The notes: generated by a model from the sequence alone, not told the origin. Shown: positions 40,100 through 63,880, counted from the stretch's first letter. The stretch is 64,000 bases of DNA from an uncultured delta proteobacterium (GCA_963737905.1 CAVTUQ010000019.1:32001-96000), one strand, 5' to 3'. Translations and numbers: made by a program.

Positions 40100-40169
40100 T
40101 GCTGAACACTTTGCGAGCGAATGCGGCGGCAAACGCCATTGCCATGACAGAAAAGTTGCTCCCAAAGTC

Positions 40170-40231: not shown

Positions 40232-40292
40232 AGGGACACGGCGTGGTTTTCAGCGGGTGACGTAAAGAACGAAATTCGCAGATACTCGCGCT

Positions 40293-40580
40293 ATGAAACA
40301 GCCCTGCGTTTACCTCTTGGCTAGTAGGCGAAATGGTACTTTGTATGTGGGTGTGACATCAGATCTGGTCCAACGAGTCTGGCAACACAAGAATGATATT
40401 GTCGAAGGATTCACGAAGCGCTACAGAGTTCACACGTTGGTGTGGTATGAAACGTGTGAGACCATGCACGCCGCCATCGCAAGGGAAAAGGCGATTAAGG
40501 AATGGAAACGCGCTTGGAAGATTGAATTGATTGAAAAATTCAACTCAGAATGGCGCGATCTGTATAAAGAGCTACTTTGA
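40293..40580 (+). CDS. Stand-alone GIY-YIG nuclease (UPF0213-like)
   Basis: VYLLASRRNGTLYVGVTSDLVQRVWQHK...AIAREKAIKEWKRAWK. Confidence 0.93.
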   Translation: MKQPCVYLLASRRNGTLYVGVTSDLVQRVWQHKNDIVEGFTKRYRVHTLVWYETCETMHAAIAREKAIKEWKRAWKIELIEKFNSEWRDLYKELL

Positions 40581-40677
40581 ATAGGCTCCGCCCCGCAACG
40601 AGTCCACCACAGGATTTAAGCATTCTGCAGCGAGGCGACGAGTGGCTGAATAGAGATCATTTGCCGAGGTAAGAAAC

Positions 40678-41970: not shown

Positions 41971-42138
41971 AACCGCATACCGGCACGAAAATCTCCGCGT
42001 GCTTCACAGGATCAGTGTATGGGGCTGATGCTTCATCGTCCCAACGCTGATGTATAAGTCAAGTGGACTTAGAGTCTGAATCAACTAGAATATCTCGCGC
42101 CTAGAAGAAATTTTTGCGCATACGAGGAAGGGGGAATT

Positions 42139-43122: not shown

Positions 43123-43327
43123 TCCGCGACGGTTCAAAACGTTCCATCCGTTCAAATCGTTCAAGCCGTATAATAGGTTCAACCCAGCACGGCTAACACG
43201 TTCGACGTTTTGAACTGCATGAACGATTCAAACGTTTTGAACAAGGGCCGACGAAGGAGGCCATTACATGTTCACCAAGATTCAGCACACCGCCATGGTC
43301 AGTGAAAACTTCGTAAGATGCAGCCAC

Positions 43328-44308: not shown

Positions 44309-44440
44309 ATTCTGTTCAAACGTTCAATCGTTCAAAGTTCAAAGCGTTGGGCAAATCACGGACCGAAAGATTTCCGAGCCGGTTTGAACAACTTGAACGG
44401 TTTGAACGTTTTGAACGAGACCGACCAAAGGGAGGCGTAG

Positions 44441-45292
44441 ATGTTAAGCCGGATTCAACATGCCGCGATCGTGAGTGAAAATTTCGTCCGCGAGGCGAAG
44501 TTTTACGAAGCGGTGCTTGGAATGAAACGGTCCAAGCCGGGCTCGGCCGAGGAAGAAAAGGCGATCCGAACCAACTACGCGGTCAGCATCAGCGACGGCT
44601 ATGTCGGCGTCACCGTAATCGGTAGAAAGCCTGGATACGTTCCTGGCCTGCATCATTTCGGCGTCGATGTCGATGATGTCGACGAAGCCATTCGCCGGAT
44701 CAAGAAAAACTATCCCGACGTCGCGGTACTCAAGCGGCCGTCGAACCGGCCCTTCGCGAGCTATGGCGCTCACGATCCGGAAGGTAACTACTTCGATCTC
44801 ACTCAGGAAGGCATGGACAACCGTAGAGATGTCTACGCGGTTCGGCCGGGTTCACCGCAAGGCGAGCAGCAACGGGAGCAGCCAAGGCGCATCCATCATA
44901 TTAAGCTGCGGGTGATGAAACCAACCGTGGTTGCCGCTTTCTACCGCGATCTATTCGATTTGAAGGAAGAAGAAAAAGCGCCGGAAGATCCCAACTTCTA
45001 CCTGACCGACGACAAAGTAACTTTGATCATCGCGCCGTGGAAAATGAGCGATTTCGAAGGCGCGGGGATCGACCGTCCGGGAATAGAACATGTTGGCTTC
45101 AAAGTCGAAAGCGTTCAGGCTGTCAAGAAAGAACTAGCCGCTTTGCGCGAATCCGATCCCGAGATGCGCGAGCGGATCGTCAGCGAGCCCAAAGAAGGCG
45201 AGCGCCGTCTTAGCTTGATCGCGACGTGCCGCCACGGCCAGCATCAATTCTCCGACCCGGACGGGGTATTCATCGATATCGTGGAGAGTTAG
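44441..45292 (+). CDS. Two-domain VOC (glyoxalase-like) family protein
   Basis: IQHAAI...FYEAVLGM...GLHHFG...DPEGN; second domain IHHIKL...GIEHVGF...DPDGVFID. Confidence 0.88.
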   Translation: MLSRIQHAAIVSENFVREAKFYEAVLGMKRSKPGSAEEEKAIRTNYAVSISDGYVGVTVIGRKPGYVPGLHHFGVDVDDVDEAIRRIKKNYPDVAVLKRPSNRPFASYGAHDPEGNYFDLTQEGMDNRRDVYAVRPGSPQGEQQREQPRRIHHIKLRVMKPTVVAAFYRDLFDLKEEEKAPEDPNFYLTDDKVTLIIAPWKMSDFEGAGIDRPGIEHVGFKVESVQAVKKELAALRESDPEMRERIVSEPKEGERRLSLIATCRHGQHQFSDPDGVFIDIVES

Positions 45293-45386
45293 AAGGCGCA
45301 GTTCTTACCGTGCTGCGCGGTGCTCCGTGTCATTTCGACCGGAGGGAGAAATCTTTTCCCGCCGCGCTGGAGTGGCGGTCAACGAG

Positions 45387-46487
45387 TTACGACATCTCGA
45401 ACGGTATCCCCGTTTTTTTCGAGATGTCCAACAAATCATTCACCACTGGTTTGATCAGGGGAATTCCTTCTTTGCTACGAATCGCCTCGGCTTCTCTTTC
45501 CGGATCGCCGGGGATGAGTGGGCCGTTGGTTCCGGGAGCGGGTTTGGTGTTGCGGAAGACGTGAATCCAGTCGTCGATCTGTCTCTTGAATTCGTTTTTG
45601 TCGATGAAACCGTCGATTTGCATGGCCCCAAAGAAGTGACCGATGCCTTTGCCGACGCTACGCTCGGGGATCTCTTGTCTGAGGGCGAAGGGTGGCGCGA
45701 AGGGTCCCCAGTTGGCGCCGCTGAGAACGCAGCACAGGATGTCGACCATAGAGGCGAGACCATAGCCTTTGTGCCCGCCCATTTCTCTTTCGGAGCCAAG
45801 CGGAAGTTGAGCCCCGCCGTCGATCATATCGTGCGGAGTCGTGGTGTCACGGCCGGCTTTGTCGATGATCCAGCCCTTTGGAATTTGTTCCTTTTTCCGC
45901 AGGGCGATTTCGATTTTGCCGTAGGCCACGGCGCTGGTGGCCATGTCGATGACAATCGGCGGCTCTTTGTCGCCTGGAAAGGCGATGGCGATCGGGTTGG
46001 TGCCGAGCATTCTTTCCGCACCCCACAGTGGCGCGACCAATTTCGTTGAGTTGGTCATGGCCCAACCAATCAGATCCCTTTCGAGCGCTTGCAAAGGATA
46101 ATAGCCCGCGAATCCGAAATGGTTCGTATTGCAAACACTTACCCAACCCGAGCCAAACTTCTCCGCCTTGTCCATGGCGATCTCATTCGCCTTCGGGCCG
46201 ACCACGAGGCCTAAACCATTGTCTCCATCGATGGTTGCCACGCTGGCTTTTTCCCGGACGATCTTGATATTGGGCTTGGGATTGATTCGCCCTAGCTCCA
46301 GCATGTCGAAGTAAGTGTGCAGCCTCGCCACGCCGTGGGAATCGATGCCTCTTAGATCCGACTTCGCCAAGACCTCGGCGGCTTGTCTGGCGTCCGCTTC
46401 GGGGACGCCGAAATAGGTGAACACGGCGGCGGAGAAGTCCGAAAGATAGTCTCCGGGAAAAAGATGAAATTCAGCTTCTAAACTCAT
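45387..46487 (-). CDS. Ldh_2 family oxidoreductase (malate/L-sulfolactate dehydrogenase, ComC/AllD-like)
   Basis: DLRGIDSHGVARL, DGDNGLG, NHFG, GTNPIA, DMATS, GHKGYGL. Confidence 0.92.
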   Translation of the reverse strand: MSLEAEFHLFPGDYLSDFSAAVFTYFGVPEADARQAAEVLAKSDLRGIDSHGVARLHTYFDMLELGRINPKPNIKIVREKASVATIDGDNGLGLVVGPKANEIAMDKAEKFGSGWVSVCNTNHFGFAGYYPLQALERDLIGWAMTNSTKLVAPLWGAERMLGTNPIAIAFPGDKEPPIVIDMATSAVAYGKIEIALRKKEQIPKGWIIDKAGRDTTTPHDMIDGGAQLPLGSEREMGGHKGYGLASMVDILCCVLSGANWGPFAPPFALRQEIPERSVGKGIGHFFGAMQIDGFIDKNEFKRQIDDWIHVFRNTKPAPGTNGPLIPGDPEREAEAIRSKEGIPLIKPVVNDLLDISKKTGIPFEMS

Positions 46488-47743: not shown

Positions 47744-49978
47744 ATGATCCTGGAACAGCATAAGTTTTCAATTATCGGCAACTCCGTCCATCGCGTCGAT
47801 GGTGTTGATAAGGTCACGGGCAAGGCGAAGTACGTTGCCGATCTGATCATTCCTGGAATGAGCGAAGGCAAGTTTCTGCGCAGCCCTTACGCCCATGCGC
47901 GCATCCGCTCCATCGGCACAACTGAAGCTGAAGCCATGCCGGGTGTGTTCGCGGTAGTTACGAGCAAAGACTTTACGGATATCAGCCCCTACATGGGGCG
48001 CGGCAAGAGCAAAGATCACCCGATCATCGCATTGGATCGGGCGATCTTTGCCGGCCAGCCGGTGGCGGCGGTTGCCGCGGTGGACCGGGCGACCGCGGAA
48101 GAGGCGTTGAGCAAGATCAACGTCGTTTACGAAGAGCTTCCGGCTGTGATCGAAGTCGAAGAGGCGATGGCTGACGGCGCGCCGTTGGTCCATTCCTTCG
48201 TGGAAAAAAACATCTGTTTCCAGACGGAGCTCGTTAAAGGGAATGTCGAAAAAGCTTTCGTCGATGCCGATGAGATCTTCGAAGATAGTTTCGAGTTCCC
48301 GATGATCTATCACTATTCGATGGAACCGCATACGTCCATCGCCCAAGTGGACGGCGACGAGATCACGATCTGGGCGTCCACGGGGCACCCGTTCGGTGTG
48401 CGCCAGGAAGTCGCGGAGGTCTTTAAAGTACCGCTCTCTAAAGTGCGGGTGCATACGAATTTCGTCGGTGCGGCCTACGGCAGTAAGTCCGGCGCGAAAA
48501 TCGAGCCCCTCGTCGTCGCGCTGGCGCGGAAAGCCCAGCGCCCGGTACGAGTAGTGCAAACTTTTTTCGAGGCGATGGTGACCTGCCGCCGTCACGCGGT
48601 CAAGTGCAAGGTCAAAACCGGAGTGAAAAAAGACGGCACCTTAGTGGCGAAACAGGCGCAAATTTTTCTCAACACCGGCGCCTATGCGGAAACGGGTCCG
48701 ACGGTTACCGGAAGGACGCTCACGCGTATTCTCGGGCCCTATCGTTATCCGAACCTGAAAATCAATGCGTACTGCATTTATACTCATACGGCGTCAGCCG
48801 CGTCGTTCCGTTCTATCGGCGGGCCGCAGACCGCGTGGGCGACCGAGTCGCAGATGGATATCATCGCCAAGAAGCTTGGGCTGGACCCGGTAGAGTTGCG
48901 CCTGAAGAATCTGGTTAAAAAAGGCGAAGAGATCCGGCCGAACTTTAGACCGCTGGATGCCGATCTCTTCAAAGGGTTCAAACTAGTCACGGACAAATTG
49001 GGTTGGGATGGTCCGGTTTCCAGGGAAGGACACGGCAGAGGAGTCGGATTTGGCACGACCGATCCCGGCGCGCCGCTTGCGTCGACATCCACAGTGCACG
49101 TGCTGGCAGATGGCAGCGTTGTGTTTATGTGCGGCACCGTGGAACTGGGTCAGGGCGCCAAGACCGTAATGAGCCAAATCGTCGCGGAAGAATTGCGCGT
49201 GCCGCTCGACCGGGTCACGATCAGGCCCATCGATACTGCGTTCACGCCGTTTGACCGCTCCACCGGTTCGAGTCGCTCGACCACCGTTATGGGCAAGGCG
49301 GTTGAGCTGGCGGGGTGCGACGCGCGCCGGCAAATCCTTGAGTTGGCTTCCGATCATTTTGAATGCCCCGACGATGCGATTACGCTTAAGGATGGCGAAG
49401 CGATCGCCGGCGGCAAGAGAATCACCTACGGCGAATTGATTAACAAGCACTTTGCGATGCAAGGCGGCGAGCTCGTCGGGACGGGTTACGCCCACAGTGG
49501 GATGGCGCCGACGCCGGCCAATCCGCTGTTTTGGGAAATCGGCATCGGCGCAGTGGAGGTCAGGGTCGACAAAGAAACCGGCCAGGTGCATGTTGAAAAG
49601 TATGTGACTGCCGCGGACGCCGGCAAGGCGCTGCATCCGCTTCAGTGCGAGGGGCAGGACGAAGGATCGGCGATGATGGGGTTCGGGCATACCTTCTATG
49701 AATCCTATCAATTCGACGGTGGGCAAATCATCAATTCGAGCCTGGTGGATTACAAAGTGCCCACCTTCGACGACGTGCCTGACGAGTTCGAATCGATCTT
49801 GATCGAAGACGCTAATGGTCCGGGACCCTATGGCGCCAAAGGTTTGGGCGAGGGCGGAATTATTCCTGTGGCCCCTGCAGTGGCAAACGCGGTGGCGTGG
49901 TGCACCGGCGCCCGAGTAAAGTCGTTGCCGCTGACGCCGGAAAAGGTCTGGCGCGCGCTGCAACAGACGAAAGACTAA
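47744..49978 (+). CDS. Xanthine dehydrogenase family molybdopterin-binding subunit
   Basis: KVTGKAKY, LRSPYAHARI, HYSMEPH, YGSK, ELGQG, GAKGLGEGG; no FAD or 2Fe-2S subunit genes adjacent. Confidence 0.93.
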   Translation: MILEQHKFSIIGNSVHRVDGVDKVTGKAKYVADLIIPGMSEGKFLRSPYAHARIRSIGTTEAEAMPGVFAVVTSKDFTDISPYMGRGKSKDHPIIALDRAIFAGQPVAAVAAVDRATAEEALSKINVVYEELPAVIEVEEAMADGAPLVHSFVEKNICFQTELVKGNVEKAFVDADEIFEDSFEFPMIYHYSMEPHTSIAQVDGDEITIWASTGHPFGVRQEVAEVFKVPLSKVRVHTNFVGAAYGSKSGAKIEPLVVALARKAQRPVRVVQTFFEAMVTCRRHAVKCKVKTGVKKDGTLVAKQAQIFLNTGAYAETGPTVTGRTLTRILGPYRYPNLKINAYCIYTHTASAASFRSIGGPQTAWATESQMDIIAKKLGLDPVELRLKNLVKKGEEIRPNFRPLDADLFKGFKLVTDKLGWDGPVSREGHGRGVGFGTTDPGAPLASTSTVHVLADGSVVFMCGTVELGQGAKTVMSQIVAEELRVPLDRVTIRPIDTAFTPFDRSTGSSRSTTVMGKAVELAGCDARRQILELASDHFECPDDAITLKDGEAIAGGKRITYGELINKHFAMQGGELVGTGYAHSGMAPTPANPLFWEIGIGAVEVRVDKETGQVHVEKYVTAADAGKALHPLQCEGQDEGSAMMGFGHTFYESYQFDGGQIINSSLVDYKVPTFDDVPDEFESILIEDANGPGPYGAKGLGEGGIIPVAPAVANAVAWCTGARVKSLPLTPEKVWRALQQTKD

Positions 49979-51351: not shown

Positions 51352-51849
51352 ATGAAACCGGAAAAAGCACAGCTGGTGGTCCAGGGACTCAAGGAGGCGG
51401 GAGTGGACTTTACCGCCGGAGTGCCGGACGCCCAGTTCATCGAAGTCTACAAGATGCTCGCTGACGATCCCGATATTCGCTATGTGGGTACGGCCAACGA
51501 AGCCGAAGCTGTGGGCGTCGGGTTTGGAGCATGGTTCGGAGGAAAAAAACCGGCGTTGATTCTCGCCACCTCCGGCTTGTTGGTAGCGACCTATCATCTG
51601 GCGCGGGTCAATATCATGCACGAAGTCCCGCTCTTAGTCGTAATTCCATACCGTGGCGACATTGGAGATCCGCGATGGCTGGGGCTTTACAAAAAAACCA
51701 CCGAGCCAGGCCTCGATGCCATGGACATTCCGTATCGGGTTGTAAGCCGCTCGGCGGACATCGTGAGGACTCTCAAAGAGTGCAACGAAAGCGCACGAGC
51801 TTGGCTCAAATGCATCGCCGTGATCTTGAATGAGGAGGCTCTATGGTAA
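51352..51849 (+). CDS. Sulfopyruvate/phosphonopyruvate decarboxylase alpha subunit-like (ComD-like)
   Basis: GVPD, NEAEAVGVGFGAWFGGKKP, PYRGD: a TPP PYR domain. Confidence 0.82.
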   Translation: MKPEKAQLVVQGLKEAGVDFTAGVPDAQFIEVYKMLADDPDIRYVGTANEAEAVGVGFGAWFGGKKPALILATSGLLVATYHLARVNIMHEVPLLVVIPYRGDIGDPRWLGLYKKTTEPGLDAMDIPYRVVSRSADIVRTLKECNESARAWLKCIAVILNEEALW

Positions 51850-52472
51850 CGCGCTTGGCATTAATCAAAGAATTGGCAACTATTGTTCCGGAAGACCTTC
51901 TCGTCGTTTCCAGTATCGGGAACAACAGCGCTTTTTGGGGAGAGCTTGCGGAAAGGGAAGCTAACTTGTTTCATGCCACCTTGGGAATGTGCACCCCGGC
52001 GGCTTTCGGGCTCGCCATGGCGCTGCCTAATCGTAAAGTTTTGGCCCTTGACGCGGATGGCAACCTTATTTTGAATTTGGGCGTCCTCGGCACGATTGCC
52101 AATGAGAACCCCACCAACCTGACGATCCTCGTCATGGACAATGGCAATTATCTGGGGAGCCACAAAAAAGAACCGGGAATGCCGACGGCGACGGGTGGAA
52201 AAATGAATCTTGAGCAAGTGGCGAAAGCATGCGGCATCGAAAGCTCGTGCACGGTTCAGGAGGTCACGGCGTTTCGCCAGCAAGTTCAGATGGCGCTGGC
52301 AAAGGCAGGGCCACATTTTATTCGCGCGCGAGTTGAGGCTCTCGATACCGAAAGGCCCGGCCGGATAAAGCGCGTGCCCGACCCGCGCGAAAACAAATAC
52401 CAGTTCGCCAAATATATTGAGAGGACCGCCGGGGTGCAGATCCTTGGCGGTGGTCTGGGCAATTTCGGCTAA
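51843..52472 (+). CDS. Sulfopyruvate decarboxylase beta subunit-like (ComE-like), TPP-binding
   Basis: DADGNLILNLG...VMDNG TPP motif; overlaps the alpha gene. Confidence 0.82.
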   Translation: MVTRLALIKELATIVPEDLLVVSSIGNNSAFWGELAEREANLFHATLGMCTPAAFGLAMALPNRKVLALDADGNLILNLGVLGTIANENPTNLTILVMDNGNYLGSHKKEPGMPTATGGKMNLEQVAKACGIESSCTVQEVTAFRQQVQMALAKAGPHFIRARVEALDTERPGRIKRVPDPRENKYQFAKYIERTAGVQILGGGLGNFG

Positions 52473-52499: not shown

Positions 52500-53474
52500 A
52501 TGAAACCGTTCGCAAAGTGTCTTATTTGGAGTTTGCCGGCGGTGTTGACGTTTGTTTTTGGGTTGCCGTACGCTGCATTGGCCCAGACCAAGATGACCAT
52601 CGCCTATTCTTCGTTGGGTCCGATGGCGACGGGCGTTTGGATGGCAAAAGACATCGGGGCTTTTGATAAGTACGGGATCCAAGCCGATATCCTTTTTATC
52701 TCCTCGGGACCGGTGGTCGTTCAAGCTCTCATCGGTGGAGATTTACAGGTGGGAAGCGCGGCTAGCAATGCGGTCATCAACGCTATTTTGCACGGCGCGC
52801 CCATCATCGGCGTGGCCGGGACGGCAAATCGGCCTTACCACCGGCTGTTCGTGCAGCCGGACATCAACCGCCTCGAAGATCTGCGTGGAAAGACTCTCGG
52901 GGTTACCCGGTTTGGCTCGATTACCGATAATCTAACGCGGATCCTGTTACGAAAATCCGGTTTAGAAGGGGCGGTCAACGTTCGTCAAATGGGCGGCACG
53001 CTCGAAGTGTCCGCGGCTTTCCAAAATAAAGTATTGGCGGGGGCGGTGACGTCCGATCTTCGAGTGAATCCGCCAGCCCAGGCAAAGGTTCTCACGCGAT
53101 TGATCGATCTAGGCATTCCTTACTCGATGAACATGATCGCCGTCTCCCGTGATTTCCTGAAACGCAATCCTGGGGCGGTGGAGAGTGTTGTCAAGGCCTA
53201 CGCCGAAGGAATCGCATTCATGAACCGTGATAAGGAACGCTCGCTGAAAATTATCGCCAAGTACGCGCGCTTGACGGATCTTAAAATGATTGAGGACCAC
53301 TACAACGACTCAGTGACATATTTGGAACGCATCCCGACACCCGAACCTGAGGCGGTGGAAACCATTCTCGAGTTCATGGGTAAAAAAGGAGTTCCGCTAG
53401 AGACTTTTATGGACAGCACGATCGTCAATCGTCTCATCGCTGAAGGCTTTTTCAAACGACTTTATCGACAATAG
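52500..53474 (+). CDS. SsuA/NMT1-like ABC substrate-binding protein
   Basis: Signal peptide, WMAKDIGAFDKYG, LRGKTLGVTRFGS. Confidence 0.88.
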   Translation: MKPFAKCLIWSLPAVLTFVFGLPYAALAQTKMTIAYSSLGPMATGVWMAKDIGAFDKYGIQADILFISSGPVVVQALIGGDLQVGSAASNAVINAILHGAPIIGVAGTANRPYHRLFVQPDINRLEDLRGKTLGVTRFGSITDNLTRILLRKSGLEGAVNVRQMGGTLEVSAAFQNKVLAGAVTSDLRVNPPAQAKVLTRLIDLGIPYSMNMIAVSRDFLKRNPGAVESVVKAYAEGIAFMNRDKERSLKIIAKYARLTDLKMIEDHYNDSVTYLERIPTPEPEAVETILEFMGKKGVPLETFMDSTIVNRLIAEGFFKRLYRQ

Positions 53475-53533: not shown

Positions 53534-54268
53534 ATGAGTCGAGTGATAACAAGGCCACTGAAAGAGGACAAAGATGGAATTCCAGGTTACATCGCGTTTC
53601 CCGAGCGCGAGGAGAAGGGGCCGGGGCTGCTTTTGATCCACCAGCATTCCGGACTCACCGGATACTTGAAGACCGCGGCCTACCGGTTTGCTAAGCTGGG
53701 TTATACGACGGTCGTCCCGAATCTTTATCACATGCTCGGTTATCCAGCGGAAACGCACATCGACAAGGGGACCGAGATTCAAAACAAGACACCCGACCCG
53801 GATTTTGTTCGAGTGATCGACCAGGGTTGGCGCTATGTTTGCGGGCGTAACGATGTTAATGCCTCGCGGGTTGGAGTCATCGGCTACTGCATGGGCGGGC
53901 GGTTGGGCATCCACTTCGTCGCCGCAACGCCATCCGCGCGAGCCTTCGTCGCCTATTATCCGTCTGTTGCGGATGAGCCAACGACGCGCATCCGGCCGCG
54001 ACATCCTTGCGACGCGGCACGGGAGATCAAATGCCCATCGATGATCCTTTACGGCGGTCATGACCAGCACAGCACGTTTCCGGTCCAGCAGCGCGTAATG
54101 GAAAGTTTTTATGCTAACGGGCAACCGTTGGAGTGGCACTACTTCCACTTCGGCAATCATGGGTTTGCGTCCACTGAATCAGACGGCTATCAACCCTATC
54201 TCGCGGATCTCGTCTGGCCGCTGGTGACCGAGTTTTTGAGTCGCGAGCTGATTGGACCGGCCCTGTAG
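53534..54268 (+). CDS. Dienelactone hydrolase family protein
   Basis: GYCMGG nucleophile, YGGHD, NHGF. Confidence 0.9.
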   Translation: MSRVITRPLKEDKDGIPGYIAFPEREEKGPGLLLIHQHSGLTGYLKTAAYRFAKLGYTTVVPNLYHMLGYPAETHIDKGTEIQNKTPDPDFVRVIDQGWRYVCGRNDVNASRVGVIGYCMGGRLGIHFVAATPSARAFVAYYPSVADEPTTRIRPRHPCDAAREIKCPSMILYGGHDQHSTFPVQQRVMESFYANGQPLEWHYFHFGNHGFASTESDGYQPYLADLVWPLVTEFLSRELIGPAL

Positions 54269-54672: not shown

Positions 54673-54948
54673 ATGATCAAACAGGTCGATATCCGGGCGG
54701 TAGAAAAAGACCTGATGAAGACGCCTAAAGCTTTAGTCATTAAGTTTCAGAAGTGGGTTGATGATATCGAGAGGTATGGTCTGGAAGAGGTTCGAAAAGT
54801 ACGAGGTTGGCATGACCATACGCTCAAGGGCGACCGCGCGGGGCAAAGGGCCATTTATTTAAACAAAAGATGGCGTGCGGTCTACGTGATTGAGGGAGGC
54901 GAAGTGAAAATCGTGAAAGTCATAGAGGTGCACCCCCATGAGTACTAA
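54673..54948 (+). CDS. RelE/HigB-like mRNA interferase toxin
   Basis: HDHTLKGDRAGQRAIYLNKRWRAVY; toxin-first gene order. Confidence 0.88.
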   Translation: MIKQVDIRAVEKDLMKTPKALVIKFQKWVDDIERYGLEEVRKVRGWHDHTLKGDRAGQRAIYLNKRWRAVYVIEGGEVKIVKVIEVHPHEY

Positions 54949-55249
54949 GAAAAAAAGTGATGCGATGCAGTTCTTAGAAAGCCTGGTCGGGGAGGTAACG
55001 TTTGGCGGATTGATCGAAGCGATGCGCCAAGCTGAGGAGATGTCTCAGGTTGAATTTGCCAAGAAGCTCGGGATTTCCAAGCAGCACCTGTGTGACATCG
55101 AGAAGGGTCGCAAGTTTGTGAGTCCTGAGCGTGCCGCGAAGTTCGCCAAGATACTGGGCCATTCGGAACAGAGCTTTGTAGCTCTCGCGCTCCAAGACAT
55201 CGTCAATCAGGGTGGGCTGAAGCTAAAAGTCACCGTAGAGGCTGCCTGA
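54938..55249 (+). CDS. Xre-HTH antitoxin (HigA-like)
   Basis: MSQVEFAKKLGISKQHLCDIEKGRK helix-turn-helix; overlaps the toxin gene. Confidence 0.88.
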   Translation: MSTKKKSDAMQFLESLVGEVTFGGLIEAMRQAEEMSQVEFAKKLGISKQHLCDIEKGRKFVSPERAAKFAKILGHSEQSFVALALQDIVNQGGLKLKVTVEAA

Positions 55250-55415
55250 AATGTACTGAGGGCTGCGCCTTCACGGATTCCAAAGAGAGGTTAACTCGCC
55301 CGGATCCGTTAACGGGGAAAAGGACCAGCTATGATTCCTTATCGGCCAGACAAGATGATTAAATAGGCGAGAGGCATGAGGCAATAGTAAGAATTTCAGA
55401 TTAGGAAAAAAGTAT

Positions 55416-56506
55416 ATGAATAAGAAATCGTCGATCCGATTTCCGGCCTCTTGCTCCGACAATCTAAAATCCAAAGCATGTCCTGAGCCACGCCGAAGGA
55501 TCGAAAATCTAAAATGGCTGGGGCTTTCGGTAATCGCTTTCGTGCTCGTGGTGGCCGGGGCGTTGGCTCAGGCGCAGCAGCCGAACAAAGTCCCGCGGAT
55601 AGGGTACCTATCGCCGTTCGATCCAGTTGCTGAGTCCACCCGTTCCGAGGCAATTCGGCTAGCTCTGCGCGAGTTTGGCTACATAGAAGGACAGAACATC
55701 GCCATCGAGTACCGATATTCGGAGGGTAAGGTCAATCGGTTCCCTGAGCTTGCGGCCGAGCTGGTGCGTCTCAAGGTTGATATCATCTTGGTATCAGGAG
55801 GGGACAGGCTGATCCTGGCGGCCAAGAATGCGACCAAGACGATTCCCATCGTTATGACAGGCGGTGGGCTCGATCCTGTTGAGGCAGGCCTGGTTGAAAG
55901 CCTTGCCCGTCCCGGCGGCAACGTCACCGGCATTACAAACCTTACCGGAGAACTAGGCGGTAAGCGGCTGGAACTGCTCAAGGAAGCCGTTCCCAAACTT
56001 GCCCGTGTCGCGGTTCTCTACGATCCGGCCAATCCGGACAGTGTACTCGAGCTGAAAGAGGTTCTCCCAGCCGCGGCGCGTGCGCTGAGGTTGACTATTC
56101 AGCCTTGGGAGGTACGAGCTGCGGACGGTTTCGAGAAGCGTATTCGCTGCGATCAGTAAGTGGCGCCCGGATGGACTCTATGTGCCTACCTCGGGCCCGC
56201 TAATGCGTGCGTGCTAACCGAAAACGGATCGTCGGCTTTGCGTTAAAGAGCCGATTACCGTCGATGTACAGCAACAGACAAGCTGTAGAGGCTGGTGGTC
56301 TCATGTCCTACGGGGCGGATCTCGCGGACAGCTACAGGCGCGTCGCATATTTCGTGGACAGAATTCTGAAGGGAGCCAAGCCTGCTGAGCTGCCTGTGGA
56401 GCAACCGACTAAGTTCGAGTTTATCATCAATCTGAAAACGGCCAAGCAAATCGGTTTGACGATTCCGCCTGAGGTGCTCGCCCGGGCGAGCAGGCTGATC
56501 AAGTGA
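55416..56506 (+). CDS. ABC_sub_bind SBP, frameshifted near 56135-56210
   Basis: Close paralog of 17124-18119, split into ORFs 55416-56159 and 56207-56506. Confidence 0.85.
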
Positions 56507-56802
56507 TTCAATTTTAGATTTTCGATTGCCGATTTTAGATTACGAGAGGCAAAATAACGAAGAAGATTTTTAGGACTCGATTCTCGTATTCCCTCTCCGA
56601 CAATCGGAAATCTAAAATCCAAAATCGAAAATAGGCGCGGTTGTCGCCTTCGGTCGGGATGTGGCTCAATGGTTCCGGGAGCCTTTTTTACGCCGTGTGA
56701 GGATCTGAGAATTTTACCGACGGAGTCCGTTTGGCAGTCGGGGCTAATTTTTATATACCAGAGATACCTACGTTAAAAGGAATTGGGAGAAACACGGAGA
56801 AG

Positions 56803-56966
56803 AAAATCCGAATATCGAAATCCGAAATCCGAAACAAATTAAAATGATCAAAAACTACATGTTCTAAACGGCGAGGATCGGATTTGGGGTTTTGGAATTT
56901 TTCAGATTTTGGGTTTATTTGGTTGTTAGTTTGTTTTGGATTTCGATATTCGGATTTCGAGTTTTG
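56803..56966. repeat. Inverted heptamer tandem-repeat array (AAATCCG/CGGATTT type)
   Basis: aaaatccgaatatcgaaatccgaaatccgaaac ... ggatttcgatattcggatttcgag. Confidence 0.7.
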
Positions 56967-57054
56967 TTTCAGTGATGTCTTGGGGCAATAAATTTTGGTG
57001 AAGTCGTTTTGTTAGGCAATTACTATGTAATAATCTACGCCTAAGGAGATCTTA

Positions 57055-57768
57055 ATGCAAGTCCCGGAGTGGCGAAACGTTATCGGTGAGATGGTGCGCA
57101 AGCACATGCGCTCGCCGGAGCTAGAGCACTATTTTTCAGTTAAGATGAATAAGCCGCGGGCGCAGCTCATGATCACGCAGCTTGGGCTTTACATCCGGCA
57201 CCGGCGGGATTGTTGGGCGTTGGTCTCGGCGAATTGCCCGGTGATGGCGATCAAGCAGGCGATCTTGCAGCATGAATATGGCGAAGTGATCAAGGATCAG
57301 TTTTCCGATTACGGTCATTTGCATTTCATCATTCGCCAGGCGCAAAAACTGGGATTGACGCCTCAAGAAGTGATCGACACCAAGCCGATCGTCAGCACGA
57401 CGGCGACGCTCTATGCTTGGGCCTGGCTGACGCACGCCAAGAGCTGGATCGAAGGATTATCCGCGCTGACGGTCACCGAATGGACAAACGATGACCGGTT
57501 ATTGCGCGATATCGGCGGCGGCCATTCCACGCGCATGGGCAGACGGTGGACTGAGGATATGGGGATTCCGTGGCGCGACATGCCGAATTTCGTCGCGCAC
57601 TCGCAGGCGGACGAAGAACATAGCGATATGTTCCTACCGTTTTTGGAAGAGTACGCGACGGGCGAAAAAGAGAAGATGGCTCTTAATGCCGTAAAAGAAT
57701 CCCTGGATCTTTTCGCTCTGTATCGCGATGGCGTGGCGCGGGCGATGGAGAAGATTCCGTTGAATTGA
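57055..57768 (+). CDS. CADD/TenA/PqqC-like heme-oxygenase-fold diiron protein, copy 1
   Basis: HEYGE...GH, a mid-protein TEW, and HSQADEEH match the E/H/E/H/D/H diiron ligand set; AAGGAG RBS. Confidence 0.8.
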   Translation: MQVPEWRNVIGEMVRKHMRSPELEHYFSVKMNKPRAQLMITQLGLYIRHRRDCWALVSANCPVMAIKQAILQHEYGEVIKDQFSDYGHLHFIIRQAQKLGLTPQEVIDTKPIVSTTATLYAWAWLTHAKSWIEGLSALTVTEWTNDDRLLRDIGGGHSTRMGRRWTEDMGIPWRDMPNFVAHSQADEEHSDMFLPFLEEYATGEKEKMALNAVKESLDLFALYRDGVARAMEKIPLN

Positions 57769-57916
57769 TGTTATTCTAAGTTTTACCGAGAAGGCAATAG
57801 GTGAGGTTTGTGCGCATGTGGCAAGGAATTACCATCCTTCAATTCGTCAGGAGGACGGAGGTTGAAAAGAAGTCCGTAAAGGTAAGTGAATTAGAAATCA
57901 AAAAAAGGAGGTGAAC

Positions 57917-58255
57917 ATGGAAAAACCAAGAATCCGGCATATTGCGATCAACGTCGAAGATCTCGACAAGACCGCAGAGTATTACAAACGAGTCTTCGGC
58001 ATGGAAGAAAAACATCGGCGGCCTGGGGGAACTATTTATCTATCCGACGGCCATCTCGATCTCGCTCTCATCCATACCGAGAAATATCCATGGGGAATCC
58101 ATCACTTTGGTTTCAAAGTCGATAGCGTCAAAGAAATCGAGAAAATTGCCGACACCAAAGCCGAGGACAACACCTACGGAGCCATTGCGGAAAGCTGGAT
58201 CAAAGATGTCGAAGGCAATCGCGTCGATGTTTCCGAGCACGGCTGGCCGATATAT
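57917..58255 (+). CDS. VOC (glyoxalase) family protein; expected stop after GWPI is missing, so the ORF runs on to 58921
   Basis: IRHIAINVEDLDKTAEYYKRVFGM...GIHHFGF...DVEGNRVDV. Confidence 0.8.
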
Positions 58256-58413
58256 CAGCAAGCTGTAAAAAGACTGTCGATTCGAGGATCAAATCGAGGT
58301 TTCGCGCGTTCATTTGCTCCGCGAGTACGCATATCGCGAGCCGGCCTCAGCCGTATGGTTTCAATGAAGTATTTTCGAACTGCAGCGAGTCTAGTCGACC
58401 GAGTTGTGACTCA

Positions 58414-59370
58414 ATGCTGGTCGCGACAAGAGCATTTTCTGATTCTCTATTTGCGTTTCTGTGCGCACTGCCGGCGCTTAGCTCGCGCAGAACCCATCCA
58501 AGGTTACCGTCGCTTATTCCGCCGTCAGCCCGATTTTCGCCGGCGTGTGGATGGCCAAGGAGATCGGCGCCTTCGAAAAGCAGGGGCTAAAAGCGGATCT
58601 CGTTTATATCAGCTCCGGAAGCATCACGGTGCAGGCGATCTTGGGCGGCAATTTGGATATGAGTATTGCGGCGAGCAACGCGGTGGTGAGCTCGATCTTG
58701 CGCGGCGCGCCGCTGGTGGCGGTCGGGAGCATTACGAACCGGCCGGCGATGAGTTTGTTCGTGCAACCGGAGATTACCAAGCCCGAGCAATTGCAGGGCA
58801 AAACCTTGGCGATCACGCGGCACGGCTCGTCGACTCATTTCTTGACCTGTTTGCGACTGGAGAAAGCTGGGCTTGCACGACAAGGTCAAGATTCAACCAA
58901 TGGGCGGCACACGGGAAGTAGATGCGGCAGTGCGAACCGGTATGGTGGCGGGCGCTGTGCGTAGCATGAAGCCGGGACCGAAAACGCGGATGCTCGTCGA
59001 TCTGCCGGATCTAGGCATTCCTTTCTCAATGGATCTTATCGCCGTGAAGCGTGATTTTTACAAGAACTCGCCGCGTACGGTGGAGGCGATGCTCAAAGCC
59101 TATATCGAAGGCGTGGTAGCGCTGAGAACCAGAAAAGAGTTTGCCTACAAAGTGTTAGGAAAATACATGCTGGGCGCGAATGATTCGCTGGACGAGGCTT
59201 ATGAATACTCCGTCAAGTATCTCGATCGTCAAGCCAAAGTGGATCCGGCCGTGATTCAAACAGTGCTGAATTGGGAAAACAAGGGCGACACTCCGGTCAA
59301 CGAGTTTTTCGACAATTCAGCCATCGATCGGATTATCAAAGAGGGATATGTCGAGCGGTTGTACAAGTAG
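58414..59370 (+). CDS. SsuA/NMT1-like ABC substrate-binding protein, frameshifted (near 58490 and 58875)
   Basis: KVTVAYSAVSPIFAGVWMAKEIGAFEKQG..., then DLGIPFSM...EGYVERLYK in ORF 58873-59370. Start is approximate. Confidence 0.78.
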
Positions 59371-59385
59371 CCGCTGGAGACAGTC

Positions 59386-60102
59386 ATGAAGCGAGCAGAG
59401 TGGAGGAAAGAGCTCGGTGAGTTGGTCCGGAACGCGATGCGTTCGCCCGAGCTGGAACACTATTTCCGAGTTAAGATCACCAAGCCCGGCGCCCAAGTCT
59501 TGATCACGCAATTAGGGCTTTTCATTCACCACCGGCGCGATTGCTGGGCACACGTATCCGGCAATTGTCCGCATATGTCCGTGAAGCAAAAGATTCTGCA
59601 GCATGAATACGGCGAAGTCATCAAAGATGAATACACCGAGCATGGACACATGGAGCTGATCATCCGCCAGGGGAAGGCGCTAGGTTTGACGCCTGATGAA
59701 GTTCTGAATGTCGAGCCTCTACCTTCAACTATGGCGACTCTTTATGCCTGGGCTTGGATCGCGAGAGAGAAAAGCTGGCTCGAAGGGCTGGCCTCTAATA
59801 CGATCACCGAGTGGGCCAACGACGACCGATTGCTTCAGGATGTCGGCGGCGGGCTTTCCAGCCGCATGGCAAAGCGGTGGATGGACGATTTGGGGTTCGG
59901 CTGGGAGCAGATGCCGAATTTCAGAGTTCACAGCCAGGCGGACGAAGAGCACAGCGACATGTTCTTGGAAGATTTCGAGCGGTTCGCCACCGGCGAGAAG
60001 GAAGCGCTGGTTTACCGAGCCGCTAAAGAGTCAATGGATCTTCTCATAATGTTCCGCGGCGGGATCGCGGCTGAGATGGAAAAGCTGGCCAAAGATATTT
60101 GA
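59386..60102 (+). CDS. CADD/TenA-like diiron protein, copy 2
   Basis: HRRDCW...SGNCP, QHEYGE...HGH, TEW, HSQADEEH. Confidence 0.8.
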   Translation: MKRAEWRKELGELVRNAMRSPELEHYFRVKITKPGAQVLITQLGLFIHHRRDCWAHVSGNCPHMSVKQKILQHEYGEVIKDEYTEHGHMELIIRQGKALGLTPDEVLNVEPLPSTMATLYAWAWIAREKSWLEGLASNTITEWANDDRLLQDVGGGLSSRMAKRWMDDLGFGWEQMPNFRVHSQADEEHSDMFLEDFERFATGEKEALVYRAAKESMDLLIMFRGGIAAEMEKLAKDI

Positions 60103-60174
60103 AATTTGGGATGAAGAATGTCTCGTGCAAAGGCGCAAAGGGCGGCAAGGTTTGTCCAACGATGAGGAACAAGA

Positions 60175-60882
60175 ATGGATGCTAAGGGTTGGGAAGCTGC
60201 TTTCGGAAAGCTCGCGCGGGAAACTATGTCGTCGCCGGAGCTGGAGCGCTATTATTCCGTGCCGATCACTCGGGCGCGAGCGCAACTACTTCTGCAACAG
60301 CTTTCGCTTTATGTCCGCCATCGCAGGGATTGTTGGGCCTTCGTTTCCGGCAATTGCCCGGTGCTTTCGGTGAAACAAAAAATTCTGGCGCATGAATACG
60401 AGGAGATGATTCGCGATCAGCACTCCGAGCACGGCCACCTGGACTTGATCATTCGACAGGGAAAAGCTATCGGCTTGTCTGCCAAGGATATTCTGGAGGC
60501 GAAGCCGATTCCGAGTACGACTGCGACACTCTACGCTTGGGGCTGGATTTGCAAGAAGAAACATTGGCTCGAAGGTCTGGCCGCGATGACCATGACGGAA
60601 TGGAATCAGGATGATCGCTTGCTCGCCGATCTCGGCGGCGGTCACGCCGCGCGCATGGGCGAACTCTGGATCAAATATCTGGGGATCACTTGGGACGATC
60701 TCCCAAACTGGAAAGCGCATCGCGCGGCGGACAAGGAGCATGTGGACATGTTCCTGCCGATCTGGGAAGAGTTCGGCCAAGGCGAAAGCGAAAAAATCAT
60801 TCTCGATGCCGCAAAGGAATCCGAGGAATTGTATCGCGTCTATCAAACCGGCATTGCCGATGCGATGGAGGCGCTGACTTGA
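60175..60882 (+). CDS. CADD/TenA-like diiron protein, copy 3
   Basis: HRRDCW...SGNCP, HEYEE...HGH, TEW, HRAADKEH. Confidence 0.8.
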   Translation: MDAKGWEAAFGKLARETMSSPELERYYSVPITRARAQLLLQQLSLYVRHRRDCWAFVSGNCPVLSVKQKILAHEYEEMIRDQHSEHGHLDLIIRQGKAIGLSAKDILEAKPIPSTTATLYAWGWICKKKHWLEGLAAMTMTEWNQDDRLLADLGGGHAARMGELWIKYLGITWDDLPNWKAHRAADKEHVDMFLPIWEEFGQGESEKIILDAAKESEELYRVYQTGIADAMEALT

Positions 60883-60947
60883 TACTGTTCTCGGACCTCA
60901 GGATCTCCTTCCCCTTAACGGGGAAGGATTAAGGAAGGGGTGTAAAA

Positions 60948-61979
60948 ATGAACACCTTCCTCTCAGCACCCCAATCCCCCGTCGAGGGGGAAGGAGTTTC
61001 CGGCCAGCGGGCACAGGTAACCAACATCTTCTTATCAGTATTCGCAATAATCGTTCTCTTTTCCATATCTGCCCATAGCGCCGAATCGGCAAAAGAGAAA
61101 ATCAGCGTGGCCTATGCTTCCATCAGCCCCAGCATGTCCGGGATCTGGATGGCTAAAGAGATCGGCGCCTTTGAGCGGCATGGTCTGAACGTTGATCTCG
61201 TCTACATTAGCTCAGGCGCCACGGCAATCCAGGGCTTGGTGGGCGGTAGTGTTCAGGCGGCGCTGGGCGCAAGTAACGCGGTGGTGGCCGCGATTCTCAA
61301 GGGCGCCCCGATCATCGCCGTCAGCAGCAATACGAGCCGCCCAGGCATGGCTCTATGGGTCCAACCCGAGATCCTGCGCGCTGAGCAACTTCAGGGGAAG
61401 ATACTGGCGATCACGCGCTTCGGCTCCACCAGTGATTTCGTCACGCGACTGGTGCTCAAGAAACTTGGCCTCGACGGCAAAGTAGACATCAGACAGTTCG
61501 GTGGAGTGGTCGAAGCGGATTTGGGTTTTCGCTCTCGACAGGCAGAGGGACGCGTTGCATCACAGGCACCCGGGCCCCAGGCAAAATTGTTGGTTGATGC
61601 CGCTGAGCTCGGCATTCCCTTCTCCATGAACCTGTTGGCCGTTAGCAACGACTACTATCGAAAATCGCCGAAATCAGTCGAAGGTATTGTCGCGGCCTAT
61701 ATCGAGGGCATCGCGGCGCTCAAAACCAAAAAGCCACAGGCGCTGAAAATGCTCGAAAGGTACATGGGCCCGCGGGGTGGCGGTCCGGAGCTGCACTATG
61801 AGTTCGTCACCAAATACCTCGACAACGTTCCGCGTGTCGACCCGGCGGCGATCGATACGGTGTTAGAGATGGTTGGCCAGTCGGGACCGGACAAAACGAA
61901 GCTTTTTGATAACAGCATCGTAGATCGGTTAGTGCAGCAGGGTTTGATCGACAAGCTCTACAAAGGAGGCAAGTTGTGA
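60948..61979 (+). CDS. SsuA/NMT1-like ABC substrate-binding protein
   Basis: Signal peptide, WMAKEIGAFERHGL, ELGIPFSM; GTGA overlap with the next gene. Confidence 0.88.
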   Translation: MNTFLSAPQSPVEGEGVSGQRAQVTNIFLSVFAIIVLFSISAHSAESAKEKISVAYASISPSMSGIWMAKEIGAFERHGLNVDLVYISSGATAIQGLVGGSVQAALGASNAVVAAILKGAPIIAVSSNTSRPGMALWVQPEILRAEQLQGKILAITRFGSTSDFVTRLVLKKLGLDGKVDIRQFGGVVEADLGFRSRQAEGRVASQAPGPQAKLLVDAAELGIPFSMNLLAVSNDYYRKSPKSVEGIVAAYIEGIAALKTKKPQALKMLERYMGPRGGGPELHYEFVTKYLDNVPRVDPAAIDTVLEMVGQSGPDKTKLFDNSIVDRLVQQGLIDKLYKGGKL

Positions 61980-62686
61980 ACGAGGTTGAGTGGCGCGAGC
62001 GATTAGGCGGGATGGTGCGCGACTATATCTGCTCGCCGGAACTGGAGCACTATTTCTCGATCAAGATGACCAAGCCGCGGGCCGCGGTCATGGTGACGCA
62101 ACAGAGCTTGTATGTACGCCATCGGCGCGAATGTTGGGCGCATGTCTCCGCTAACTGCCCGGTCCTGGCTGTGAAGCAAAGAATCTTAGAACACGAATAT
62201 GAAGAAATTATTCGGGACGATTTTTCCGAATACGGCCACCTGCATCTCATCATTCGGCAGGGAAAATCCGTCGATCTTCAACCGGACGAGATCCTCAATG
62301 CCCAGCCGTTGCCCGAGACGCGGACAGTCCTTTACGCCTGGTCATGGATGACGAGTGAAATGAGTTGGATCGAAGCGCTGGCCGGCATGACCATCACAGA
62401 ATGGTGCAACGACGATCGCCTGCTAGGCGACTTGGGCGGAGGACAGTCGACGCGCATGGCGAAGAAATGGATGAACGAAATGGGCTTTACTTGGAAGCAG
62501 ATTCCCAATATGGAAGCCCACAGCCAAGCGGACGAGAAACACAGCGACATGTTTCTGCCGTTTCTTAAGGAATACGCCACAGGGGAAAAAGAGGGACGCG
62601 CGATCCAGGCAGCCAAGGATTCCTTGGCATTCAATGCCATGTTTCGCGAGGGAATTGCAAAAGCACAAGAAAAACTGCCAGAGTGA
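61976..62686 (+). CDS. CADD/TenA-like diiron protein, copy 4
   Basis: HRRECW...SANCP, EHEYEE...YGH, TEW, HSQADEKH. Confidence 0.8.
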   Translation: MNEVEWRERLGGMVRDYICSPELEHYFSIKMTKPRAAVMVTQQSLYVRHRRECWAHVSANCPVLAVKQRILEHEYEEIIRDDFSEYGHLHLIIRQGKSVDLQPDEILNAQPLPETRTVLYAWSWMTSEMSWIEALAGMTITEWCNDDRLLGDLGGGQSTRMAKKWMNEMGFTWKQIPNMEAHSQADEKHSDMFLPFLKEYATGEKEGRAIQAAKDSLAFNAMFREGIAKAQEKLPE

Positions 62687-62829
62687 GAGAGCGGAGTGAT
62701 GGGAAAAGATTTCTCGCTCCGCTCGAACTGGCAATTGAGGATCGTGTCATCTCGAACGCAGTGAGAGATCTTTCTTCATTGCGGTTTAGTTAAGCGAGTA
62801 TAGTAGAGAGTGCTCGTAGGAGGATATTT

Positions 62830-63529
62830 ATGAGTCTTTGGCCCAAAGTTAGAGAAGAGCTTAACGCCATCGTCAACCGGCACTTTGACACCCCGGAGTA
62901 TAAGCAATTTTTCTCCGTCAAGCTGACTCCGGCGCGGCAGCAGATTTTGGATCTGCATTATCCCCACTACATCAAGAGCCGGCGCGATTGTTGGGGAGCC
63001 GCCGCGGTGAAAGCTCCGCTCGATGTGAAGCGCGCGATCTGGGAGCACGAGAAAGACGAGCTGATCTACGACCCGCGCATGGGATCGGCGCATCTGACTG
63101 ATGCGCAAATGGCCGAGGCGACTGCTGAATTGAATCTGTTGCCGGGTGCGCGGGCTGGCGATCTACGCCTGGATGTATCTGGCGACGACACGGCCGTGGA
63201 TCGAAAGTTTGATGGTGAACCACATCACGGAACGTAAGAACAACCCGGCCATCGTCAAAGGGGGAGGTTTTACCCAACGGTTCGCGCATAAAAAGGTCGC
63301 CGATTTGGGCGGAACGATCGAGACCCTCGACATCAACACAAAAGTGCACATGGTAGCGGATGAAGATCATTCGGACATGTTCGAGCCGATTTTTGATCGC
63401 CACGTGGTGGATGAGAGAGCAGCCCAGGCCGTGATTCGCGCCGCTCAAGACAGCCTGGCCGTCGATCGCGCTTATCGGAGCGCGCTGGCGACGGCGATGG
63501 TGCGAATCGCCGAGTCACAGGCGGCGTGA
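62830..63529 (+). CDS. CADD/TenA-like diiron protein, divergent copy 5, frameshift near 63150
   Basis: SRRDCW, EHEKDE...SAH in ORF 62830-63237. YAW...TER...HMVADEDHSDMF in ORF 63146-63529. AGGAGG RBS. Confidence 0.75.
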
Positions 63530-63880
63530 CCTCAGAAGGGTTTCGCGTTTCGGGTTTCAGGTCTCGAGTTCAAATCCAAACACGGGATTGACTCGTTCAG
63601 GTTCATCTTCGTCAGCGGCTCCGACCCACGCAAAGGCGGCAGTAAATCGGCTTCTGATCCCGTATCATCACAGATCGTTTTCAGATTTCGGCTTTTAGGG
63701 TCAACTCGAAACCAGGAACCAGAAACTCGAAACTGCGAAGTGGCGGTGCATCAAATTTGCTGCGGGGTATATCAAATTGACTACACCTCACGCCGTTTCT
63801 GATTAGTTGAGCCCCGGCCCGATCATCTCAATTCGCCAGTCATTACAAGCATTTCTTTGAAGCCCTGTCGCTCCCAACCT

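Follow-up and report, generated by a model that had tools for sequence, protein, structure and literature searches.

A conserved, modular and probably catabolic operon of an uncharacterised clade of heme-oxygenase-like dimetal oxidases in an uncultured delta proteobacterium

Why a bacterium should keep five adjacent genes for similar oxidase-like proteins is the question raised by a stretch of 64,000 nucleotides (hereafter the window) from an uncultured delta proteobacterium (GCA_963737905.1, CAVTUQ010000019.1:32001-96000, equivalent to G000:C19:32001-96000). The genome, G000, consists of 6.7 Mb in 46 contigs and is 87% complete; a homolog with 78% identity bears the source name Candidatus Binatia, and we take the host order to be UBA9968. 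Five co-oriented paralogs, H1 to H5, are interspersed here with genes for two substrate-binding proteins (SBP1 and SBP2) and a vicinal oxygen chelate (VOC) protein (Table 1). An initial annotation had regarded the five as heme-oxygenase-like dimetal oxidases (HDOs) of about 235 residues, forming together with their neighbours an import-and-oxidise module. The five starts, the SBP genes ahead of H2 (at a distance of 15 bases) and H4 (the stop of SBP2 overlapping the H4 start as GTGA) and the VOC gene after H1 were all confirmed. H1 to H4 are intact, but H5 is not a single ORF in this assembly, as it is split at position 63157. The locus is probably a conserved, modular, catabolic operon of an uncharacterised HDO clade, and the best explanation of the five genes is that they are old, functionally diverged members of this clade.

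The intact paralogs share 52-62% pairwise identity, and H5 is 31-38% identical to them. As the initial annotation described, all five carry HRR(D/E)CW or SRRDCW, HE-x-x-E...H and H-x3-D-x2-H, together with TE(W/R); S(A/G)NCP and D-x-GGG are limited to H1-H4, each of which contains 8-10 Trp residues. H1-H4 scored 36.6-46.1 bits against PF14518 (gathering score 28.9), and a search of the ESM Atlas returned generic PF14518/PF03070 clusters only. The model of H2 (pLDDT 92.6) had the heme-oxygenase (HO)-like seven-helix fold, and matched the structures of SSO2700 from Sulfolobus solfataricus (4lqx; Z 23.5, rmsd 3.2, 232 residues aligned), CADD (8va9; Z 22.4, rmsd 2.4, 208 aligned), and HrmI, BesC, FlcD and UndA (Z 19.5-20.8). 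The intact H5 ortholog of the related genome G023 likewise gave a model with the HO-like fold (pLDDT 93.5; Z 18.6 to CADD, rmsd 2.9, 196 aligned). This ortholog matched no Pfam family at E 0.001, so that H5 was assigned to the HDOs purely by fold and ligands.

The predicted ligands of H2, namely E77, H88, E142, H182, D186 and H189, align with E81, H88, E142, H174, D178 and H181 of CADD, and judging from the superposition and alignment they would converge on a dimetal site. The six-ligand set was present in all five copies of the window. In a clade alignment of 90 sequences from the loci L011-L051 and G000 (BLAST E 1e-25 or better, at least 190 residues; ligand profile built from 38 diverse members), the six ligands together with R50, R51, H73 and E74 were kept in every sequence, and R160 in 88. 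A set of three His and three carboxylates is that of most HDOs according to the available part of a 2026 review (PMC13108848). The array proteins, with the full set, are HDO-type, and their metal is most likely diiron. An extra Glu ligand in a beta-turn insertion, as in SznF, was looked for in the H2 model; residues 33-60 form an unbroken helix with Arg at 50 and 51, and D52 and E74 are conserved acids. From the alignment, R-R-x-x-W on this auxiliary helix combined with H-E-x-x-E is the clade signature. The NCP motif, listed in the initial annotation as common to copies 1-4, does not single out the subfamily: PqqC has AAIMANCP at the equivalent place.

The contention of the initial annotation that the proteins are not explained as CADD, PqqC or TenA was borne out by HMM searches, in which no score reached the CADD or PqqC cut-off, and by comparison of the diagnostic residues. 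The HDO class with the 3His/3carboxylate set (UndA, BesC, HrmI, AetD, SktA, FlcE; PF14518) has the same seven-helix HO fold and E-H/E/H-D-H ligands, whereas the array proteins are less than 22% identical to its members in structure alignments, show the invariant RR-x-x-W and H-E-x-x-E, and occur as up to five paralogs per operon with a dedicated VOC, surrounded by genes for catabolism and uptake and not by a natural-product cluster. The closest characterised structures were the self-sacrificing p-aminobenzoate synthases CADD/CT610 and NePabS (1rcw, 8va9, 9pj4; TIGR04305), with which all six ligands align. Tyr27 is the substrate and Lys152 the amine donor in CADD, as reported in the accessible portions of PMC9522330 and PMC11965152. 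In the window, H1-H4 have Leu where CADD has Tyr27 and H5 alone has Tyr, the Lys152 position is Met or Phe, and the Tyr43, Tyr141 and Tyr170 positions are kept in none of the five; a folate context was not found at the array. H1-H4 scored 12.7-34.9 bits in TIGR04305, where 200 are required, and the highest score in the whole genome was 95.9, so that membership was rejected. The best match by both sequence and fold was SSO2700, a TENA/THI-4 domain protein (E 3e-13, about 20% identity), but it differs in having neither the RR motif nor, in the alignment, a His at the H182 position; a literature search for SSO2700/4LQX found no paper.

The fold is also common to FlcD (8w1q) and SznF (6vzy). FlcD, an HDO four-electron dioxygenase with a carboxylate-rich substrate held by arginines according to the available text of PMC11363339, differs in its mononuclear site and its E-H-E-H-V-R motif. 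In SznF a Glu is added as the seventh ligand, whereas the array clade has the plain six, with Arg in place of Glu some 26 residues ahead of the first ligand, as estimated from the offset. PqqC (TIGR02111) and TenA thiaminase II share the HO fold too, PqqC shares the ANCP turn, and databases label close homologs of the array proteins as PqqC. Nevertheless, PqqC has no His at the H88 position, and membership was rejected at 19.2 bits for H2 against a cut-off of 240, with no hit for the other paralogs (best in the genome, 135). TenA was rejected as well: the array reads TEW or TER where LPCYW, which we take to be the catalytic Cys motif of TenA, is expected, and a separate gene with LPCYW is located at C37:70848. 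Both PqqC and TenA are metal-free in the account given by the available part of PMC13108848. Literature searches found neither the clade, nor a pairing of an HDO with a VOC, nor a catabolic panel of HDOs described, though supplementary sequence similarity network tables (PMC7848743, PMC11363339) may hold the clade as an unnamed cluster; the accessible portion of a Binatota survey (PMC8262859) makes no mention of heme oxygenase, PqqC, TenA or diiron.

The distribution of the clade was examined next to its gene order. H2 had a match in 41 of 41 genomes searched of the order. The H1-H4 profile at E 1e-25 found members in 20 of 21 genomes of the order and in none of 130 from other families of the class, and distant members occur, by source name, in Chloroflexota and Alphaproteobacteria. 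In a search for carriers that are cultured or annotated, a Chloroflexota homolog used as a query against genome contigs gave one locus out of 116 pattern matches, and 72,556 plasmids contained no match. In family f1, the extended order is molybdenum (Mo) hydroxylase, SBP, thiamine diphosphate (ThDP)-dependent decarboxylase alpha/beta, SBP0, dienelactone-hydrolase-family (DLH) protein, H1/VOC, SBP1, H2, H3, SBP2, H4, H5 and GGT-like protein, with genomes holding subsets. G162 (99% complete) encodes five intact HDOs on one contig, with a UbiD gene separating H2 from H3 and a GGT-like gene following H5, the latter position being occupied by such a gene in 12 loci. G023 has all five on two contigs, with H3 partial and UbiD after H2; joining these contigs into one array through their UbiD fragments was rejected, as the fragments overlap (residues 1-381 and 89-236) and do not tile. 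Smaller forms were found in G018 (98% complete) and G021 (95%), where the VOC is accompanied by H5 only and no H1-H4 ortholog was found in the genome, and in G029 (96%) and G013, where it is accompanied by an H1-like copy without H5. In family f3, a TctC-like SBP, VOC, H5 and GGT are joined by an H1-4-type copy, one more paralog and another VOC. Thus the number of HDOs per module varies from one to five while the VOC stays. A ferritin-like gene between VOC and H1 (L020:5249-5782) was seen in G022 only; it is not conserved, and could supply iron. The module proposed in the initial annotation is conserved with its uptake and catabolic genes, and it is no local oddity: the cluster is the fullest form of an order-wide operon.

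The strong evidence for a module is provided by two links at the level of orthologs, those of VOC with HDO and of SBP2 with H4. A VOC ortholog (at least 65% identity) was present in 25 of the 41 genomes, and in all 25 it lay within 1.1 kb of a clade HDO, although G000 has 62 VOCs; one weaker match (59%) was found in G022. The VOC has invariant His8, His63 and Asp104 with Ala at the fourth canonical metal position, at a mean column identity of 84%, an arrangement of three ligands that presumably resembles FosA-type VOCs. Profile comparison of the VOC gave only weak matches, to N-terminal regions of catechol 2,3-dioxygenases, and no function. As for SBP2, all seven orthologs (at least 74% identity; 57 candidates scored per genome) directly precede an H4-type gene. 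The SBPs had been called SsuA-like; they pass the wider NMT1 family of Pfam, but SBP2 reached only 43 bits against the SsuA cut-off of 163.5 (TIGR01728), and that membership was rejected.

A quick maximum-likelihood tree (78 rows; long branches flagged; support by SH-aLRT only) placed each of H1-H5 with orthologs from other genera at a support of 99-100, and it was used only for these tight clades. The dN/dS ratio was 0.04-0.09 in 17 of 17 ortholog pairs, both halves of H5 included, indicating purifying selection, and synonymous sites were saturated between paralogs. Clade-fixed differences were located on the helices surrounding the site, at the putative pocket positions 39, 43, 139, 145, 157, 220, 223 and 224, with Q43, Q157 and N220 in H4, Q145, Y220 and Q224 in H3, and H42, Y43, S49, N138, H139 and R143 in H5. 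By analogy with the auxiliary helix of SznF and from offsets to the substrate residues of FlcD, these positions may line the substrate pocket; the same helix provides substrate determinants in SznF, and arginines bind the substrate carboxylates in FlcD (available parts of PMC7848743 and PMC11363339, respectively).

The component families of the operon are all known. The array is one case of an expansion that runs through the lineage, and across the genome HDOs, UbiDs and NMT1-type binding proteins have all multiplied. G000 gave 31 PF14518 matches, 24 of them above the cut-off, and only 2 of 14 control genomes had matches. An iterated profile detected 35 HDO-like ORF hits in 25 loci of G000, with ten genes in the Arg-Arg clade. 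Besides the VOCs, the genome encodes about 305 NMT1-type binding proteins, 44 UbiD, 31 bicupins, 33 xanthine dehydrogenase (XDH) large subunits and 125 amidohydrolases (amidohydrolase-2). With so many NMT1-type genes in the genome, finding one of them next to an HDO carries little weight in itself; they were near 16 of the 25 HDO loci (7.6 expected). Bicupins were found within 5 kb of 5 of the 25 (1.1-1.4 expected, p 0.005-0.007; seven neighbour families were tested, with uncorrected p values), and XDH, ThDP and amidohydrolase genes showed no enrichment near HDO loci genome-wide. The approximately 305 binding proteins compare with 96 ABC permease-domain matches in G000, and many have no adjoining transporter.

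Sister HDO genes occupy loci of their own. The Arg-Arg paralog on contig C13 (G000:C13:38866-42164; L044-L048) is found in a conserved operon together with UbiD and a bicupin that is gentisate/aminosalicylate-dioxygenase-like (292-317 bits, under the cut-offs), and often also with a DapA-like aldolase and a gene of binding-protein fold that has no match in Pfam. An HDO pair on C12 (G000:C12:107333-113632; L043) is accompanied by bicupins, and in G000 and G023 by an EutA-like gene. The adjacency of EutA-like gene and HDO recurs in a Chloroflexota genome (L051:4284-7839), followed there by an FAH-family hydrolase. Beyond the window end, G000:C19:106036-111957 contains two more HDOs of another subfamily, each adjoining UbiD.

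The five-gene array is real. The longest exact DNA common to any two copies was 9-14 bases, and contigs of other runs bridge the H1-VOC, SBP1-H2 and H4-H5 junctions, the whole stretch being spanned by none. An assembly artefact, considered possible in the initial annotation, or a recent tandem duplication is ruled out by the at most 14 shared bases, the saturated synonymous sites and the intact array on a single contig of G162. Three defects had gone unnoticed in that annotation: the split of H5, a frameshift in SBP1 and the loss of the VOC stop. H5 is read in two ORFs (62830-63237 and 63146-63529) because of one extra base at 63157, which is absent from 3 of 3 aligned orthologs and from near-identical contigs of all four runs compared. 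The net extra base of SBP1 is lacking in three of the four runs, those covering the site. H5, SBP1 and VOC are intact in relatives, SBP1 in G023 and G015. As a background, 6 of 81 distinct G000 genes with close relatives were frameshifted (tblastn; 7 of 82 matches, with H5 counted twice), which suggests that the assembly is indel-prone, and either local decay or assembly error may explain the three defects. Elsewhere in the genome, G000:C17:59286-60517 is a frameshifted, partly duplicated copy of the HDO at C7:460237, likely an assembly error or contamination.

On balance, the five genes probably form a modular catabolic panel of HDO-type oxygenases that degrades imported anionic acids; aromatic or N-heteroaromatic carboxylic acids are a tentative choice of substrate class. 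Each paralog would act as a stand-alone O2-activating dimetal enzyme, most likely a diiron one. The NMT1-type binding proteins, some of them co-inherited with one oxidase as SBP2 is with H4, would capture related small anionic substrates, the invariant Arg-Arg/His pocket would hold the anionic group, and the clade-specific residues would set specificity. The Fe2(II/II) site could form a peroxo species leading to ring oxygenation or oxidative C-C cleavage, with the single shared VOC converting a common reactive product, and the flanking Mo hydroxylase, UbiD, lactone hydrolase, GGT-like amidohydrolase and ThDP decarboxylase may prepare the substrates or finish them. That no reductase is conserved may reflect the chemistry of a substrate-reduced dioxygenase (compare the four-electron dioxygenation by FlcD in the available text of PMC11363339) or a reliance on general cellular reductants. 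The catabolic direction is suggested by the neighbours (UbiD, GGT-like gene, Mo hydroxylase, DLH, ThDP decarboxylase) and by the sister loci with bicupin and UbiD.

Several observations weigh against such a catabolic panel. The characterised HDOs in the 2026 review are biosynthetic, as far as its available part goes (PMC13108848). G004 and G012 have H4 without SBP2, G016 has SBP2-like genes (58-64%) without a clade HDO, and a permease was not found in this array. No reductase or ferredoxin was conserved in the arrays inspected, the sole ferredoxin-domain gene (G070) lying on the other strand; within the window, the absence of reductase, pqq and folate genes, also noted in the initial annotation, was checked over 30-64 kb. 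The enrichments of UbiD and VOC near HDO loci vanished under an SBP-anchored control (p 0.09 and 0.20), and the NMT1, UbiD, XDH and amidohydrolase families from which the neighbours come are hugely expanded in the genome, in the numbers given above. Finally, defects in 3 of 8 array genes exceed the background of 6/81 (p 0.017), so that the module may be decaying in this strain.

The initial annotation had left open a hetero-oligomer or a panel of enzymes for related substrates, and the latter is favoured here. A sequential pathway on one substrate, or optional mixed dimers that bind the VOC as their effector or as a subunit for channelling, would agree with the recurring gene order H3-SBP2-H4-H5, with the very divergent pocket of H5, which usually adjoins an H1-4-type gene, with the fixed pair of paralogs on C12, and with the high conservation of a VOC that is always adjacent. 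We consider it unlikely. Near-complete genomes keep the same VOC with H5 alone or with an H1-like copy without H5, which argues against an obligate hetero-oligomer and excludes a fixed stoichiometry or a required five-step sequence; furthermore, multicomponent diiron hydroxylases have pairs of catalytic and structural subunits, in contrast to the complete metal site in every copy of the array. Less probable again is a biosynthetic cluster for a small metabolite, in which amino-acid-derived N-oxygenation or C-C cleavage would take place and the SBPs would import precursors or product. The free loss of any member fits a panel and fits a biosynthetic line poorly, and the sister paralogs sit with ring-cleavage cupins and UbiD. 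The genes called in the array loci, a part of which was run against Pfam, included no recognisable NRPS, PKS, ATP-grasp, precursor peptide or exporter. What speaks for biosynthesis, apart from the roles of all HDOs covered by the review cited above, is the GGT-like gene after H5 and the position of H73 four residues before the first ligand, where, by an estimated offset, FlcD has the substrate-contacting Y177 (accessible part of PMC11363339).

Two further explanations, both very improbable, rely on known HO-fold proteins. Metal-independent proteins of the TenA/PqqC type, for example in thiamine-precursor salvage with NMT1/THI5-type SBPs, would account for the scores of H1-H4 at or above the PF03070 cut-off, for the PqqC labels of homologs and for the NMT1/THI5-like SBPs. 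In opposition to this are the invariant dimetal ligand set, including the His at H88 that PqqC lacks, the score of H2 (19 bits versus 240) and the separate TenA-like gene at C37:70848; with about 305 NMT1-type genes in the genome, the SBPs give no pointer to thiamine. The least probable is a CADD-like, self-sacrificing supply of p-aminobenzoate by H5 in a lineage without PabB. Since G000 has folP and a single chorismate-binding enzyme, under the PabB cut-off, replacement of PabB by H5 was tested. All 20 H5-group sequences have Tyr where CADD has Tyr27, but the residues at Lys152, Tyr43, Tyr141 and Tyr170 are not conserved, H1-H4 score 13-35 bits against 200, and no HDO is present among four genes called around folP (C30). 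Of the 15 genomes with a second chorismate-binding enzyme, 11 had H5, as did 13 of the 25 with one, which shows no complementarity. As observations on folate synthesis itself, the dihydropteroate synthase and the one chorismate-binding enzyme of G000, probably TrpE-like, were noted jointly for G000:C9:70680-71441 and C30:36513-37280, with folP on C30; 25 of 41 genomes have a single chorismate-binding enzyme, p-aminobenzoate has no evident source in family f1, and no HDO reaches the CADD cut-off.

The catabolic panel, if it is true, would add an oxygenase class to aromatic and heterocycle degradation in a widespread uncultured lineage of soil and freshwater, with genes now mislabelled PqqC in databases. 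A wider proposal is that one Binatia order turned a biosynthetic HDO scaffold into a catabolic oxygenase family (about ten Arg-Arg members among about 35 HDO-like ORFs per genome) with no dedicated reductase, acting as substrate-reduced dioxygenases or with the VOC as effector or coupling subunit, and opening or decarboxylating (hetero)aromatic acids by a route unlike those of Rieske, flavin and ferritin-like oxygenases; this proposal is more doubtful than even the choice of substrate class. According to the available part of the 2026 review, about a dozen HDOs have been validated among more than 10,000, and substrate finding and the roles of second-sphere residues are open problems (PMC13108848). 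The array supplies five naturally occurring variants that have the same primary ligands but differ at pocket positions fixed within each clade. Some of them come with a binding protein of their own, and the ligand of that protein can point to the substrate; the second-sphere question is thereby directly testable, and few natural sets would serve as well for testing HDO specificity.

Table 1. Genes of the array and of its conserved upstream part, in positions of the window
Feature	Position	Strand	Basis
H1, HDO-type dimetal oxidase paralog (by homology), 237 aa, intact	57055..57768	+	PF14518 39.4 bits (cut-off 28.9); own clade support 99; dN/dS 0.06-0.07
VOC, dedicated single-domain protein, 112 aa in relatives, stop lost here	57917..58252 (reads on to 58921)	+	PF00903; ortholog linkage; alignment; stop comparison
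SBP1, NMT1-type binding protein with a frameshift near 58847-58866 that leaves its 5' end in another frame	58482..59370	+	Pfam; ortholog comparison
H2, HDO paralog, 238 aa, intact	59386..60102	+	Model; structure matches; ligand alignment with CADD
H3, HDO paralog, 235 aa, intact	60175..60882	+	PF14518 36.6 bits; clade support 100
SBP2, NMT1-type binding protein	60948..61979	+	PF09084 46.1 bits; linkage to H4
H4, HDO paralog, 236 aa, intact	61976..62686	+	PF14518 46.1 bits; clade support 99
H5, divergent HDO paralog; an extra base at 63157 splits the ORF, which has about 231 aa in relatives	62830..63529	+	Ortholog comparison; model of intact G023 ortholog
Mo hydroxylase (xanthine-dehydrogenase-family) large subunit, conserved upstream of array	47744..49978	+	Pfam; ortholog upstream in G008, G022, G018, G162
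ThDP-dependent decarboxylase of two subunits, ComDE-like but scoring under the sulfopyruvate decarboxylase cut-offs; conserved upstream	51352..52472	+	Upstream in G022, G012, G018, G162
SBP0, third NMT1-type binding protein of extended cluster	52500..53474	+	Pfam; synteny
DLH protein, conserved upstream	53534..54268	+	PF01738; upstream in G015, G021, G014, G070

A scan for promoters and terminators gave results at or below shuffle level, and RNA runs contained just 0.06-0.12 of the sequence words. Between DLH and H1, the conserved cluster is broken (54673-56506) by a pair of RelE-like toxin and HTH antitoxin genes and by an ABC_sub_bind gene in two pieces (55416-56159 and 56207-56506). On both sides of the array, at 56780-56970 and 63530-63740, there are intergenic elements of low complexity that form imperfect palindromes; the former attracts many partial contigs of other runs, suggesting a dispersed repeat. 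Further upstream, the region 35829-46487 of the window contains additional genes of aromatic catabolism, encoding a LigB-like dioxygenase, a LigXa-type Rieske oxygenase without adjoining reductase, a two-domain VOC, several NMT1 binding proteins and an Ldh_2 dehydrogenase.

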